From a virus (Duplodnaviria; Caudoviricetes), in the IMG/VR virus record IMGVR_UViG_3300037493_000570, positions 1 through 55,840 of that record: DNA of 55,840 nucleotides. One strand, 5' to 3'. Each line of letters begins with the position of its first letter. The stretch's first letter is position 1. The notes under the pieces were generated by a model that saw only the letters and a list, made by a program, of their open reading frames with translations, did not search any database and was not told the DNA's origin. This document shows, in pieces, positions 393 through 24,187 of this stretch. Both the position numbers and the translations under genes were made by a program.

Positions 393-879
393 ATGCCATA
401 TGAAAACTACCATCTTCTCGATATACTCGTTTCTTTCCACGTTTACCTTCTGATATTTTATTTTTAACATCATCTGATCGTTCAACGCCTTTTAATGGAG
501 ACGGTTTGCCTTTCATTGAATTGCTAATTTTTAGTTTAGTCTCTTCAGATTTTATTAATCCCAATTGATATAAACTAATTTTTAGTTTAGTCTCTTCATT
601 CATAGGCTTTCCAACATGAGATTGTCTATTCTTCTCATTAGCTTCTTCGCTGTGCGACTTACCCCTAAATGAACTAGGTTGACCTTTACGACCTTTACTA
701 ATGTTAGCTTTCCACGATTCAATATCATGGGTTTCACGGGTATAACCAGATATACCTTTGTTCCAAGGCACGTCGATAAAGATAGGGATTAGATGACCGT
801 CTTCTTCTAGTTGACTATAGTCAACACTGAAAGTCTTAAGAGACTCAAAGACGTCTGTAGATGGTGAATAAATATTCAT
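391..879 (-). CDS. NUMOD3-repeat DNA-binding protein; homing-endonuclease-like, no recognisable nuclease domain
   Basis: PWNKG plus several (H/M)SEETKxKIS repeats; SD AAGGA and late promoter upstream on the - strand. Confidence 0.75.
   Translation of the reverse strand: MNIYSPSTDVFESLKTFSVDYSQLEEDGHLIPIFIDVPWNKGISGYTRETHDIESWKANISKGRKGQPSSFRGKSHSEEANEKNRQSHVGKPMNEETKLKISLYQLGLIKSEETKLKISNSMKGKPSPLKGVERSDDVKNKISEGKRGKKRVYREDGSFHMA
524..598. repeat. Exact 24-bp direct repeat (524-547, 575-598) encoding EETKLKIS
   Basis: CTAATTTTTAGTTTAGTCTCTTCA twice, 51 nt apart. Confidence 0.9.
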
Positions 880-934
880 GCTGGCATTCCTTATTAATGT
901 TAGAATAGGTGGGAATTGGCGTTCCGTGACCTAT
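880..934 (-). promoter_or_regulatory. Structured 5' leader, copy 1
   Basis: Minus strand AUAGGU-CAC-GGAA-CGCCAA-UUCC-C-ACCUAU-UCUAACAUU-AAUAAGG-AAUGCCAGC-AUG; covaries with the copy at 23666-23720. Confidence 0.7.
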
Positions 935-976: not shown

Positions 977-984
977 TATAAATA
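977..984 (+). promoter_or_regulatory. T4-type late promoter TATAAATA
   Basis: Exact gp55 consensus ending 5 nt before the ATG at 990. Confidence 0.85.
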
Positions 985-19079: not shown

Positions 19080-19651
19080 AAAATCTATCACACTATGTTA
19101 AAGTTTACAACGACGTTTTCCCTAAAGACTTTTGTAAATCAATGATTGATCGATTTGAAACGCTTGATACTACGACAGCGCCATCTATGCGAGTGTCTGA
19201 TCATTCTTGGGATAAAGATTACAGACGTTTTCTAGAAGTAAACATCAAACAAGAACCTGTATTCGCTGATCTAATAGATCCTTATTATGATCGTATTAAA
19301 GAAGTTTACGCGCATTATAAACAGATGGTAGGCGCTGAATTTTTTCCATCTAAGTTCTCACTTGAAGAAGCTAGAATGAAGAGGTATTTAAACGACGACT
19401 ACGAGCAGTTTGGTTGGCATGTCGACATTGGAGATAAAGCTTCGGCTAGTAGATATTTAGTTATGTTTACTTATCTAAATGACGTAGAGGAAGGTGGCGA
19501 GACTGAGTTTCAGTCTAATTCGAATTTTACTGTTAAACCTATATGTGGTACAATGGTCGTTTTTCCTCCATCGTTTATGTTTCCTCATAGAGGCAGAAAG
19601 CCAATAAGTAATTCTAAATACATTCTTTCAACTTATTTGCACTATGCTTAG
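19076..19651 (+). CDS. 2OG-Fe(II) oxygenase (prolyl-4-hydroxylase-like)
   Basis: WHVD, YLNDVEEGGETEF, FPP..FPHRG; start probably TTG overlapping the gp43 stop. Confidence 0.85.
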   Translation: MKNLSHYVKVYNDVFPKDFCKSMIDRFETLDTTTAPSMRVSDHSWDKDYRRFLEVNIKQEPVFADLIDPYYDRIKEVYAHYKQMVGAEFFPSKFSLEEARMKRYLNDDYEQFGWHVDIGDKASASRYLVMFTYLNDVEEGGETEFQSNSNFTVKPICGTMVVFPPSFMFPHRGRKPISNSKYILSTYLHYA

Positions 19652-20162
19652 CTTTAATCGCTTCTGATATTTTCTTACGATGTTCTAAACTTTTAGATTT
19701 TCCAAGATTAGATTTAGATATTTTATCTTTAACTTCCTCTGATCTTGGTATACCCTTGAGTGCTTTTGAAACCTTTTGTTTTCTTTCATCGCTCGCTGGT
19801 TTAAACTTTACTGTTCTAGGTTTAGACATTTTACGTTTAGTTTCTTCAGAATGTGGTCCATACCTAGGAGGAAGCGATTTACCATTTGTCATATTTAAAA
19901 AATCATCTCGTCCTAAAGCATTCATTCTTCGCAAAACTCTATGTTCCCATTCTCTTGCATCATCTACATTAGAGAATGTTTTACGTATTTCATATTCAAA
20001 TGAATCTTTTCCAGTTTCTTCTATAAGAGTTTTGACTTTTTTCGAAGAAGTAAAATATGTATTCCATAAATCATTTGGCTGACAATTCATTGCATATCGC
20101 ACCCCATAATACATTTTTCCAGTAGGAATGTGTTTAATTAGATATGTGTATGGAGTGTTCAT
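19614..20162 (-). CDS. GIY-YIG-like homing endonuclease with NUMOD3 repeats
   Basis: PYTYLI...YYGVRY, YFTSS, EIRKTF, WEHRVL, HSEETKRKMS. Confidence 0.8.
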   Translation of the reverse strand: MNTPYTYLIKHIPTGKMYYGVRYAMNCQPNDLWNTYFTSSKKVKTLIEETGKDSFEYEIRKTFSNVDDAREWEHRVLRRMNALGRDDFLNMTNGKSLPPRYGPHSEETKRKMSKPRTVKFKPASDERKQKVSKALKGIPRSEEVKDKISKSNLGKSKSLEHRKKISEAIKAKHSANKLKECI

Positions 20163-20191: not shown

Positions 20192-20199
20192 TATTTATA
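20192..20199 (-). promoter_or_regulatory. Late promoter TATAAATA (antisense)
   Basis: TATTTATA on the + strand, ~30 nt upstream of 20162. Confidence 0.7.
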
Positions 20200-21719: not shown

Positions 21720-23028
21720 GTATTTCACAGATCACTTTGAAAAAGTAGTTGCACAAGAGTTAGTAGAGTTCTTTACTCAATATAATAAGCCAGCGTCACT
21801 CGACATCCTTGCGATTCAACTCGGCAATCGCAAGGATCTTCGTGGTGAACAGTTGAGTCAGGTTGAAGCTTATATCAATGAGCTTACATTCAAAACAGAC
21901 AACGATGAATGGTTGTACAAGAATACTGAAGCCTTCTGTAAGAAGCAAGCAGTGTATAACGCAATCATCGATTCGTTTGAAATCATCGAAGGCAAAGACA
22001 AAGTTCGTACGGAGGATGCTATTCCATCCATGTTGTCAGATGCTCTATCAGTATCATTCGACTCATCCGTTGGTCACGATTACCTTGAAGACTTTGAGGA
22101 ACGATACGACTTCTATAATCGCACCGAAGAGAAACTAGAATTCGATCTAGATCTATTCAATAAGATTACGAAGGGTGGTCTATCCAAGAAGACTCTTAAC
22201 GTTATCCTCGCAGGAACTGGCGTTGGAAAATCATTGTTCATGTGTCACGTTGCAGCCGGTGCTTTAATGCAAGGTAAGAACGTTCTATACATCACAATGG
22301 AAATGGCCGAGGAACGTATTGCAGAACGTATCGATGCAAACCTGTTGAACATGACGATGGAAGAACTTGGTAAAGTAACCAAGGACATCTATGAAACACG
22401 TCTCGGCAAGTTGATTAAGAAGACAGCTGGCAAGTTAATCGTTAAGGAATACCCTACAGCGGCTGCGCACTCTGGACACTTTAAAGCATTGCTTGAAGAG
22501 TTAAAGATGAAACGCAACTTCATGCCTGATCTGATTGTTATCGATTATTTGAACATCTGTTCATCTGCTCGTATGAAAGCTGGTGCTGGTGTTAATTCAT
22601 ACACCTTCATTAAGTCTATTGCAGAAGAACTTCGTGGTCTTGCTGTTGAGTATAATGTACCAATCTTGTCTGCAACACAAACGACTCGTAGTGGATTCGG
22701 TAATACTGACGTTGGACTTGAAGATACCTCTGAATCGTTTGGTCTTCCAGCAACTACCGACTTTATGTTTGCATTGATCTCTACTGAAGAGCTTGAGAAT
22801 CTTAATCAGATCATGGTTAAGCAACTTAAGAACCGTTACAATGATGTGAATTACTATAAGCGATTCGTGATCGGTGTTGATAGGTCTCGTATGAAACTGT
22901 ATGATGTTGAGGAATCAGCACAAAAGAATATCTCTGATGCTGGTCAAGATGATGGTCCAGCTTTTGATAAGACTTCATTTGGCAAAAGGATGAAAAGTGC
23001 GGGAGACATGGATAATTTTAAATTTTAA
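21631..23028 (+). CDS. gp41: Replicative helicase gp41 (DnaB-like)
   Basis: [43 protein letters not shown]. Confidence 0.96.
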
Positions 23029-23665
23029 ATTTACAATTGCTAAAGTGCCATCTCTTCATTGCATTTCCCTTACCAATAGCATTACAATGTGGGCAAAAAG
23101 TTATACTTAAAGCCTGTGCCGAATTTGACATTTTTATTTTTGACTCTGTTGTCATTTTTCGGCCATTTAAAGATATTGAAAGTTTCAACTTAGTTTCTTC
23201 AGAAAGCGTTCTGCCTTTTAAAGAATTTGAAATTTGTTGTTTTCTTTCGACTGAAAGAATTCGACCTTTATTTGCGCTTGGTTGACCTTTTAATTTTTCA
23301 GAAATTGTCTTTTTAGTGAGTGTTGTATGCGGTTTAGTATGATGTCCTGGTTTTCCAAGTTTAGAATTAGAAATTTTTTTTCGTGATTCTAAACTTAATC
23401 CCAACATACCATCACCACCATCTGTTTTATTTATGAGTATGCCTGTAAAAAGATCTTTCCGACCCCACCATTTTATAAGTCTTCTTTCAATAGCTAAAGA
23501 ACCTAAATTTGTTAAGTTTGATTCTAATATTACTATTCTAGATTTATCTTTGGGGACTGAAACACCTGCTTGATGTTTACTGAAAGCTCTATTATTTTTA
23601 CCTTTGCCAATATAGTATGGAGTTCCATCTATACGAACATAAGCGTAGACGTAATAAATAAGCAT
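23018..23665 (-). CDS. GIY-YIG-like homing endonuclease with NUMOD3 repeats and C-terminal CPHC motif; start 23665
   Basis: [38 protein letters not shown]; SD AAGGAG. Confidence 0.85.
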
Positions 23666-23720
23666 GCTGGCACTCCTTAATAGTGTTAGAGCCCTTAGGT
23701 GTTCCACCACCGTGAAGGGC
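23666..23720 (-). promoter_or_regulatory. Structured 5' leader, copy 2
   Basis: Minus strand GCCCUU-CAC-GGUG-GUGGAA-CACC-U-AAGGGC-UCUAACACU-AUUAAGG-AGUGCCAGC-AUG. Confidence 0.7.
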
Positions 23721-23739
23721 ACTTTTTGATTGTATTATA

Positions 23740-23768
23740 TGTATTTATAATACAAAGTGTGTTATAAT
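23740..23768 (+). promoter_or_regulatory. Early-type promoter overlapping an antisense late promoter (23742-23749)
   Basis: TGTATT-17 nt-TATAAT on +; TATAAATA on -. Confidence 0.6.
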
Positions 23769-23785
23769 TGTTATTTGGAGAATAT

Positions 23786-24187
23786 ATGTCAATGAATTGG
23801 GTTAAAGACATGCAGGATATGCATGCAAAATTTGGTGTTAACACCGTCGTTCGTGGACTAGATAAAGCAAAGCTTACTGCGTTCATTCAATTTCGTATCA
23901 AGTTCTTGCAAGAAGAGCTTGATGAAATGATTGTGTCTGACAATGGTGATGATACCGTTGATGCATTGATCGATCTTTGTGTGGTTGCTATTGGAACTCT
24001 CGACGCTTTAGATGTTAATGCATACACTGCTTGGGATAGAGTGTTAGAAGCAAACATGGCAAAAGAAGTTGGTATCAAAGCAAGTCGTCCTAATCCATTG
24101 GGACTGCCTGACTTGATTAAGCCAGAGGGTTGGACTGCTCCAAGCCATGCTGATAATGTTGGACTGCTAAGCAAGGTACAAAAATAA
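23786..24187 (+). CDS. MazG/PRA-PH-like nucleoside triphosphate pyrophosphohydrolase
   Basis: LQEELDE, VDALIDL, VLEANMAK, DLIKPEGW. Confidence 0.85.
   Translation: MSMNWVKDMQDMHAKFGVNTVVRGLDKAKLTAFIQFRIKFLQEELDEMIVSDNGDDTVDALIDLCVVAIGTLDALDVNAYTAWDRVLEANMAKEVGIKASRPNPLGLPDLIKPEGWTAPSHADNVGLLSKVQK

Follow-up and report, generated by a model that had tools for sequence, protein, structure and literature searches.

The 55,840-nucleotide (nt) stretch analysed here, referred to as the window, covers positions 1 to 55,840 of the virus record IMGVR_UViG_3300037493_000570 (Duplodnaviria; Caudoviricetes) and contains two copies of a short structured element, each located at the start of a gene of the homing-endonuclease type. 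A domain scan found NUMOD3 in the endonuclease-type genes of the window with E-values of 6e-13 and 5e-9, and both genes preceded by the element carry NUMOD3 and are antisense to their neighbours, as stated in the initial annotation, which was made from the sequence without database searches. The gene of copy 1 is antisense to the flanking capsid-end gene and to the gene starting at 990, while the gene of copy 2 sits antisense between the gp41 helicase and a MazG-like gene; in cultured relatives, mazG is found directly after gp41 with no gene between them. The gp41-type helicase shares 63.6% identity with that of Methylophilales phage Melnitz and about 57-63% with those of cyanomyoviruses, all of them Kyanoviridae, and the window was therefore assigned to a T4-like phage of aquatic bacteria. 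Read on the - strand, the element spans 934..877 in copy 1 and 23720..23663 in copy 2. In the following, "sense" refers to the strand of the target gene and "antisense" to the opposite strand. The features of copy 1 are:

391 to 879, - strand: target gene, 162 amino acids (aa), with NUMOD3; no catalytic domain recognised
868 to 874, + strand: antisense late-promoter-like box ATAAATA in endonuclease codons 2-4, located in the alignment to the covariance model R2
881 to 903, + strand: antisense hairpin 1 from the fold, with an 8-base-pair (bp) stem CUGGCAUU/AAUGUUAG containing two G·U pairs, and the 7-nt loop CCUUAUU, complementary to the Shine-Dalgarno (SD) region of the endonuclease gene
905 to 934, + strand: antisense hairpin 2, terminator-like, from fold and alignment, with a 6-bp and a 4-bp stem on either side of a 1-nt bulge (G), a loop of 6 nt and a second bulge of 3 nt (GUG)
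935 to 945, + strand: tail ACC-UAUUUAUA after hairpin 2, the complement of the endonuclease's own late promoter
945 to 938, - strand: sense late promoter TATAAATA

The features of copy 2 are:

23018 to 23665, - strand: target gene, 215 aa, with NUMOD3 and, by eye, a GIY-YIG-like N-terminus
23654 to 23660, + strand: antisense late-promoter-like box ATAAATA in endonuclease codons 2-4
23667 to 23689, + strand: antisense hairpin 1, CUGGCACU/AGUGUUAG, loop CCUUAAU
23691 to 23727, + strand: antisense hairpin 2, GCCCUU-A-GGUG ... CACC-GUG-AAGGGC followed by AC-UUUUU, in the form of an intrinsic terminator
23742 to 23749, - strand: sense late promoter TATAAATA, 21 nt upstream of the structure and not abutting it

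The initial annotation described the element as an RNA structure of the - strand, i.e. of the 5′ untranslated region (UTR) of the endonuclease mRNA, with the layout P1-CAC-P2-6-nt loop-P2′-Y-P1′-linkers-ATG NNT ATT TAT. This layout is present exactly in both copies; the stems differ in sequence between the copies and are still paired, and the identical spacing and conserved linkers are seen in both when the - strand is read. When up to 3 mismatches are allowed, a conserved block of 28 nt is found at two places in the window, compared with 0.00 occurrences expected from 100 shuffles. The covariance model R1 scored the two copies with 80.5 and 80.4 bits, the next best match in the window reaching 11.6 bits, and the model R2 gave 93.5 and 82.6 bits (877-941 and 23663-23727) with no other match at E<=1. 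A named family could not be assigned initially, and this held: the whole window returned 0 Rfam 15 matches at gathering thresholds on both strands. When two loci of 2.4-3 kb were searched against Rfam at E<=10, 8 weak matches were obtained, one of which overlapped an element, namely PCA3_2, a model of a human long non-coding RNA, with 14 bits against a gathering score of 100. A coding account of the conserved block was rejected: some copies do have an open frame upstream of and in phase with the ATG, but a 1-nt indel shifts the reading frame between copies, and in window copy 1 P1 begins with a TAG. Pairing of the P2 loop with UGCCAGC in a pseudoknot was also dismissed, the loops being too variable by inspection.

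Relatives of the element were collected by pattern searches. In the virus collection, exact patterns on the 3′ part found 10, 58, at least 118, 59 and 61 stretches, and a pattern taken only from the commonest first stem found at least 120 stretches, mostly new loci with a differing 3′ part. The pattern scan of the metagenome collection yielded at least 119 stretches. From these virus and metagenome contigs, 233 distinct elements were parsed, several of the source counts being lower bounds; the parser accepted G·U and A·C pairs alike and required CAG. One locus (L117), a chance pattern match without the CRC bulge, was left out of the accessibility, promoter-helix and codon counts. In cellular genomes there were 6 pattern matches, one of which, on a 5.9-kb contig of a Flavobacteriaceae metagenome-assembled genome, is upheld by R2 with 76.5 bits; a further one is weak in R2 (22.4 bits) and the other four are chance matches.

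The structure of the element is supported by covariation. A structure-blind MAFFT alignment of 36 relatives (35 distinct) in sense orientation showed 98.8% of 490 cells paired, with changes on both sides in 11 of 14 pairs; none of 500 shuffles matched this, slid controls reached 31.6-43.3%, and RNAalifold independently predicts the same structure from this alignment. Divergent copies from whole contigs added further compensatory changes in the small hairpin over the SD sequence (P3), for which the set found with the first-stem pattern contains dozens of different paired arms. For a larger alignment (A4), 215 elements with distinct stems were reduced to 146 by picking the rarest stem combinations first, and 138 of these were aligned. 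Left out were four rows whose hairpin 1 contains long insertions (the second copy of L075, L165, L256 and L205), two in which the parser had mis-registered this hairpin (L143 and L144), and the near-duplicates L364 and L371; in minimum free energy (MFE) folds of the antisense strand, 7 of these 8 form the same two hairpins and L075 forms an alternative first hairpin. On the antisense strand, 98.9% of 2479 cells at 18 pairs of A4 show standard pairing, and two-sided changes are present at 15 of these pairs, with none of 500 shuffles reaching the real pairing and slid controls at 30-46%. Hairpin 1 (pairs 23-48 to 33-41) is paired in 96.7-98.8% of cells, and the values for hairpin 2 are 100% and 98.5%, all 10 of its pairs showing two-sided changes. 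The three outermost pairs of the 8-bp helix are partly imposed by the search patterns and the CAG rule. The claim of a covarying structure common to very different endonuclease genes is thus upheld by the alignment of the relatives.

The strand on which this structure is selected can be read from the pairs that are not Watson-Crick. Among the 233 elements, read on the sense strand, P1 contains 13 A·C and 0 G·U cells, the pairs 1-3 of P2 contain 5 A·C and 0 G·U cells, and the core of P3 contains 34 A·C and 2 G·U cells, i.e. in total 52 A·C versus 2 G·U from at least 20 distinct sequence contexts, and there are almost no one-sided pair changes. The asymmetry is also present where the helix is not fixed by a search pattern (12:0 in P1 of 147 elements and 34:2 in the small hairpin of 97 elements). 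Since an A·C on the sense strand is a G·U wobble on the opposite strand, selection for secondary structure acts on the strand that faces the target gene. Here, UCUAAC and GCCAG, initially described as conserved linkers, turn out to be the two arms of an 8-bp hairpin, pairing as CUGGCAYU/ARUGUUAG, in which two of the pairs are G·U. When folded, the + strand of the window copies gives -15.5 and -22.5 kcal/mol (z -1.06 and -3.08), and the - strand with an unremarkable -8.4 and -17.9 kcal/mol (z -0.74 and -1.48); in 232 of the 233 elements the antisense MFE is the lower one (means -18.2 versus -13.6 kcal/mol). From the initial interpretation, the real covarying element without an Rfam family therefore remains, and its assignment to the - strand is not supported: wobble asymmetry, linker pairing and folding energies all favour the + strand.

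These data also bear on the sense-strand 5′-UTR element proposed in the initial annotation and by Dassa et al. (2009; PMC2677866), according to which the hairpins form in the endonuclease mRNA, with P1 and P2 as a 5′-terminal stabiliser or protein site and the small hairpin holding the SD sequence and tuning translation. The late promoter was correctly placed upstream of the structure: TAAATA ends 3-6 nt before P1 in 197 of the 233 elements, and 3 or 5 nt before it in 186, so that late mRNA would begin at the foot of P1. With over 98% Watson-Crick pairs, P1 and P2 would also fold on the sense strand, and the SD sequence is shared between the loop of the small hairpin and its 3′ arm. However, this hairpin has only 4 bp, the invariant linkers are either unpaired or contain two A·C mismatches on this strand, where only 88.3% of the A4 cells are paired, and both the wobble count and the weaker fold in nearly every element are difficult to reconcile with selection on the mRNA. 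Even with the precedent of T-even endonuclease genes that use hairpins at the ribosome-binding site (RBS; PMC2988022), a structure acting in the sense strand appears unlikely.

Read-through and late transcripts could further differ in the accessibility of the SD sequence. In T4-type differential occlusion, the AUAAAUA of a read-through transcript would pair with UAUUUAU in codons 3-4 and late transcripts would escape, a logic established for I-TevI, segB and mobE (PMC2988022), and the two boxes are indeed complementary and flank the leader. The initial annotation had already considered this logic a poor fit, and the SD sequence is unpaired to nearly the same extent in read-through and late RNA (0.52 versus 0.59 in 83 elements, a difference of only 0.07), which also fails to favour the sense-strand element; T4-type escape was rejected as the main mechanism. 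The long-range helix between promoter RNA and codons 3-4 was rejected as well, native and swapped partners giving -4.78 and -4.64 kcal/mol (permutation p = 0.23) without co-variation beyond the constant cores. As this helix would be AU-only and would have to close a multiloop of about 75 nt, differential occlusion is regarded as extremely improbable.

On the antisense strand, the two hairpins are flanked by promoter-like and terminator-like sequences. Among the 233 elements, the box over the first codons is NATAAATA in 141, NATATATA in 40 and TATAATN in 16, with none of these in 36, and the gap between NATAAATA and GCUG is 5 nt in 108 of 141. Codon 2 has T as third base in 70 of 79 elements, whichever amino acid is encoded, and TATTTA occurs in another reading frame in 20 of 156 elements, mostly at the same distance to CAGC. 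Since this distance is kept despite the frame shift, ATT TAT is at least partly a box at the nucleotide level; a peptide-only account of ATT TAT is partly true, as synonymous ATA and ATC occur, but insufficient given these 20 elements. In T4 late promoters the distance from box to start is about 6 nt, and the antisense start is therefore placed at the G right before the first helix; in copy 1, the ATAAATA box is the proposed promoter of the antisense RNA, with a predicted start near G880. T4 late promoters consist of a TATA box of 8 bp that precedes the start site by about one helical turn (PMC2988020). In a subfamily of metagenome loci (such as L306, L311, L331, L366 and L368), TATAAT(T/C) replaces the antisense ATAAATA at the same position, the sense TATAAATA is replaced by a different AT-rich box, and the antisense tail is GTTTAATATAC; this may represent a phage group with a different promoter consensus.

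At the other end, the tail after hairpin 2 contains on average 5.5 T in its first 10 nt (199 elements), and in most elements it is the complement of the endonuclease's own late promoter. Where no sense promoter abuts, the tail still contains 5.15 T (34 elements), for example ACTTTTTG in window copy 2. In copy 1, an additional feature follows downstream of the tail:

952 to 973, + strand: extra hairpin with a UUCG loop, then seven T, read from the sequence; weak evidence

This hairpin was not flagged by the terminator scanner and not chosen by RNAfold in a 107-nt fold; it is possibly a back-up terminator of the antisense RNA.

A conserved hairpin with a T-rich tail on the antisense strand could also serve as a terminator or insulator without a discrete small RNA, which would stop backward transcription, shield the neighbouring gene and make the cassette self-contained. 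Of 61 gene contexts, 29 have the endonuclease gene antisense to both neighbours, which favours this reading, and 19 have it co-oriented with both, which does not (mixed in 8, unclear in 5). Copy 1 likewise points in both directions: it has back-to-back terminators at the 3′ end of its gene, and + strand transcription from upstream already meets the canonical terminator at 367-388 before reaching the gene. As the conserved first hairpin, the box and its fixed 5-nt distance are left unexplained, a pure terminator or insulator is judged improbable.

The association with endonuclease genes extends to the whole family. A downstream open reading frame (ORF) ending inside the locus was present for 221 elements and had a length of 100-300 aa in 207, 60-99 aa in 4 and less than 60 aa in 10. 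A Pfam scan of 82 downstream proteins identified NUMOD3 in 37, GIY-YIG in 17, HNH_3 in 7, HNH in 5, the I-TevI DNA-binding domain in 5, SegE in 3 and HNH_5 in 3. Single-linkage clustering by blastp placed 197 of 211 downstream proteins in one cluster via shared modules and did not separate the nuclease families. The window also contains a third endonuclease gene (20162..19614, - strand, 182 aa, SegE-type GIY-YIG and NUMOD3) without the element, which therefore marks a subset of such genes. This third gene lies antisense between a 205-aa + strand ORF and a UvsX-like gene and has TATAAATA upstream at 20199..20192 without an obvious SD sequence.

Several observations were made on individual target genes. 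The copy 1 gene contains NUMOD3 repeats only and no recognisable GIY-YIG or HNH domain, yet the full cassette is kept; it may be a degenerate or DNA-binding-only derivative. The ten elements followed by ORFs of less than 60 aa (L079, L084, L119, L145, L173, L217, L242, L255, L256 and L341) are solo or decayed cassettes; one locus that keeps the hairpin without an endonuclease gene is reported by Dassa et al. (2009; PMC2677866). In loci L003-L010 (e.g. L003 2402-2500, - strand), an ATG with a good SD sequence about 90 nt upstream opens a frame that runs across the entire element and continues into the HNH gene. This ATG could be left over from the start of the host gene that was invaded, or it could begin a longer protein form.

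Taken with the flanking boxes, the structure suggests that the element is a putative cis-antisense RNA gene of about 65 nt which covers the RBS of the endonuclease gene. In the proposed mechanism, the element would be a mobile cassette serving free-standing homing-endonuclease genes of T4-like phages, with the late promoter TATAAATA, a leader of about 60 nt, the SD sequence and the ATG on the endonuclease strand. On the opposite strand, the NATAAATA box over codons 2-4 would start the RNA at the foot of the 8-bp hairpin, whose loop would present the exact complement of the SD sequence; after a 1-nt spacer, the bulged 10-bp hairpin and the U-rich tail would end it. The late mRNA of the endonuclease would begin at or just inside P1, so both RNAs would be made late and be fully complementary over the translation-initiation region, and they would be expected to pair, probably first loop to loop. 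The duplex would lower translation, trigger cleavage or both, and could thereby limit the nuclease to an amount that is tolerated. The structure with its covariation, the folded strand, the link to endonuclease genes and the location of the promoter-like and terminator-like sequences are results of the analysis; production of the RNA, its two ends and its effect on the endonuclease are inferred.

Several points weigh against this antisense RNA gene. We consider it slightly more likely than not, the RNA being predicted from DNA sequence, and no cultured phage record matched the element. The antisense box is imperfect, 36 of the 233 elements being without ATAAATA, ATATATA or TATAAT, and its codons look constrained by the peptide (Ile/Thr-Tyr, with ATT, ATA and ATC all used). 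The U-rich tail begins 3-5 nt past the stem and is broken by A, and a simple terminator scanner, which would be expected to miss stems containing internal loops, flagged neither window copy. That CTAAC and CCAG are invariant is partly imposed by the search patterns and the CAG requirement of the parser, and the P1/P2 hairpin, almost fully Watson-Crick on the sense strand as well, would fold there and may have a role of its own. Finally, the wobble asymmetry gives the folded strand and cannot separate RNA from single-stranded DNA.

The last point leads to a DNA-level element, either as hairpins of single-stranded DNA or as a block of about 75 bp, bounded by the inverted TATAAATA / TATTTATA boxes, that would be a recombination or recognition site for endonuclease swapping. 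DNA hairpins tolerate G·T, and the pairs are nearly all Watson-Crick plus G·T; inverted AT-rich boxes do flank the block, and identical cassette ends are found before GIY-YIG, HNH and NUMOD3-only genes. Nevertheless, the stems diverge freely between copies in one genome, unlike a fixed protein recognition sequence, and the element is not accompanied by any nuclease or transposase known to act on hairpins of DNA. The conserved tandem G·U, the promoter-hairpin spacing and the hairpin with U-tail are typical of an RNA gene, and we consider a function as DNA very unlikely.

A bolder version of the antisense RNA gene can be formulated, in which the element would be a portable, self-regulating driver of selfish nuclease genes, with convergent late promoters producing two RNAs from about 75 bp and each promoter doubling as part of the end or start region of the other transcript. 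Stems and loops diverge between copies within one genome; with 1-6 copies per genome, this divergence would restrict each antisense RNA to its own endonuclease, as in plasmid incompatibility alleles, and would also avoid repeat-mediated deletions. In the boldest form, a stable nuclease and an unstable antisense RNA would act like a type I toxin-antitoxin system, an addiction that would make the endonuclease gene hard for the phage to lose. We regard this extension as speculative and rather unlikely.

One of the closest known systems is FinP/traJ of F-like plasmids. FinP is a cis-antisense RNA of about 70-80 nt that folds into two stem-loops with a very short spacer between them; its sequence is complementary to the traJ 5′ UTR including the RBS, and its second stem-loop and U-tail form the terminator. 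The element shares with it the two adjacent hairpins, the coverage of the RBS, the terminator-like end and the mirror-image hairpins of target and regulator. It differs in that the target is a homing-endonuclease gene of a lytic T4-like phage, the promoters are T4-late-like and the terminator tail is at the same time complementary to the sense promoter; the two RNAs are not similar in sequence, and we know of no FinO-like partner of the element. In IS10, RNA-OUT forms one long stem-loop and pairs with RNA-IN at its 5′ end. In the proposed mechanism, too, the nuclease or transposase gene of a mobile element would be restrained by a structured antisense RNA which starts just inside the gene and covers the translation start, with convergent promoters a few tens of bp apart; in contrast to RNA-OUT, the element has two hairpins, the overlap comprises the whole leader, and the stems differ between copies in one genome. 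Promoter-early stem-loop (PeSL) cassettes of T4-type phages contain early sigma-70-type promoters and are not known to be tied to endonuclease genes. They resemble the element as short modules of promoter and stem-loop before unrelated genes that may mediate modular shuffling, whereas the boxes of the element are late-type and its module includes the SD sequence and the first codons.

Two further precedents come from T4-like phages themselves. In cyanophage S-PM2, the antisense RNA CfrI is expressed opposite a homing-endonuclease gene (Millard et al. 2010, as described in PMC2984593); it resembles the proposed RNA as an antisense transcript of an aquatic T4-like phage that is co-expressed with the endonuclease gene, but it is about 225 nt long and also overlaps psbA. 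As S-PM2 (NC_006820) gave no R2 match at E<=1, CfrI is not of the same family. Hairpins that sequester the RBS are known in T-even phages for I-TevI, I-TevII, I-TevIII, segB and Aeh1 mobE, and the seg43(25) hairpin is described as non-sequestering (PMC2988022). These cases share with the element a late promoter and an RNA structure directly before an endonuclease gene and a presumed limit on expression; in these cases, the stable sense hairpin includes the SD sequence and the late promoter lies inside its 5′ arm. The promoter of the element, in contrast, is upstream, the sense hairpin that holds its SD sequence in loop and 3′ arm has 4 bp, the other strand is selected, and P1 does not pair with the SD sequence, unlike sequestration of the I-TevI/mobE type.

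Prior art is found in the study of marine metagenomic "fractured genes" by Dassa et al. (2009; PMC2677866), which reports hairpins before 15 of 16 free-standing endonuclease ORFs, 10 hairpins with TATAAATA, and two conserved motifs that are complementary on the stem and located in 5′ UTRs. There, the hairpins were interpreted as sense structures by analogy with the mobE RBS hairpin, and neither a covariation test nor a strand analysis was given. Compared by text description, these hairpins are very probably the same element or a close relative, and the existence of the element is therefore not new. The novelty initially claimed thus stands with regard to Rfam and is reduced by the published hairpins with TATAAATA. 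The present work newly contributes the size of the family, the evidence for covariation, the lack of matches in Rfam and in cultured phages, and the transfer of the structure to the antisense strand, along with its promoter-like and terminator-like features. Apart from CfrI, no antisense RNA family at endonuclease starts was found described in the full-text literature, subscription-only papers and supplements aside.

Homing endonucleases are the main selfish elements of T4-like phages, and their control has so far been explained by sense RBS hairpins and autorepression. If the proposal is correct, an antisense RNA gene at hundreds of GIY-YIG, HNH and NUMOD3 genes would be a third, portable layer of control, and it would explain insertion in either orientation, about half of the genes being antisense to their neighbours. 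R1 and R2 would then be an easily searchable marker of endonuclease cassettes in metagenomes. As a point of method, the hairpins were assigned to the mRNA in 2009 and again in the initial annotation, and the asymmetry of G·U and A·C reverses this assignment.

With regard to cultured phages, blastn of four natural copies against 50,697 phage records gave only chance-level matches of 19-36 nt at E 3-10, megablast of both window loci gave no match, and R2 found no element in S-PM2, Melnitz, S-H38, S-SSM5 and P-TIM68. In five uncultured contigs of 160-169 kb, R2 found 1, 1, 3, 3 and 6 copies (14 places, 45-94 bits). Among loci of at least 5 kb, 144 of 228 share with the window at least one non-endonuclease gene of at least 200 aa; by their N-terminal sequences, the shared genes resemble the T4-type clamp loader, clamp and polymerase, gp46/47-like proteins, UvsX, UvsW and NrdB.

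Further observations concern the neighbourhood of the two copies in the window. At 344-388, back-to-back canonical terminators separate the end of the capsid-like gene from the end of the copy 1 gene (stems and T runs at 367-388 on the + strand and 361-344 on the - strand), so that transcription is fenced off where the inserted gene ends. Downstream of the copy 1 cassette, TATAAATA at 977-984 (+ strand) is followed after 5 nt by the ATG at 990 of the next + strand gene, whose late mRNA, judged from this spacing, would be leaderless or nearly so unless the true start codon is further downstream. In S-H38 and S-SSM5, mazG follows or overlaps gp41 directly. In the window, an extended -10-like sequence, TGTTATAAT, is located within 23754-23790 (+ strand) shortly before the GGAG and ATG of the MazG-like gene, which would thus have its own predicted sigma-70-type promoter downstream of the cassette.

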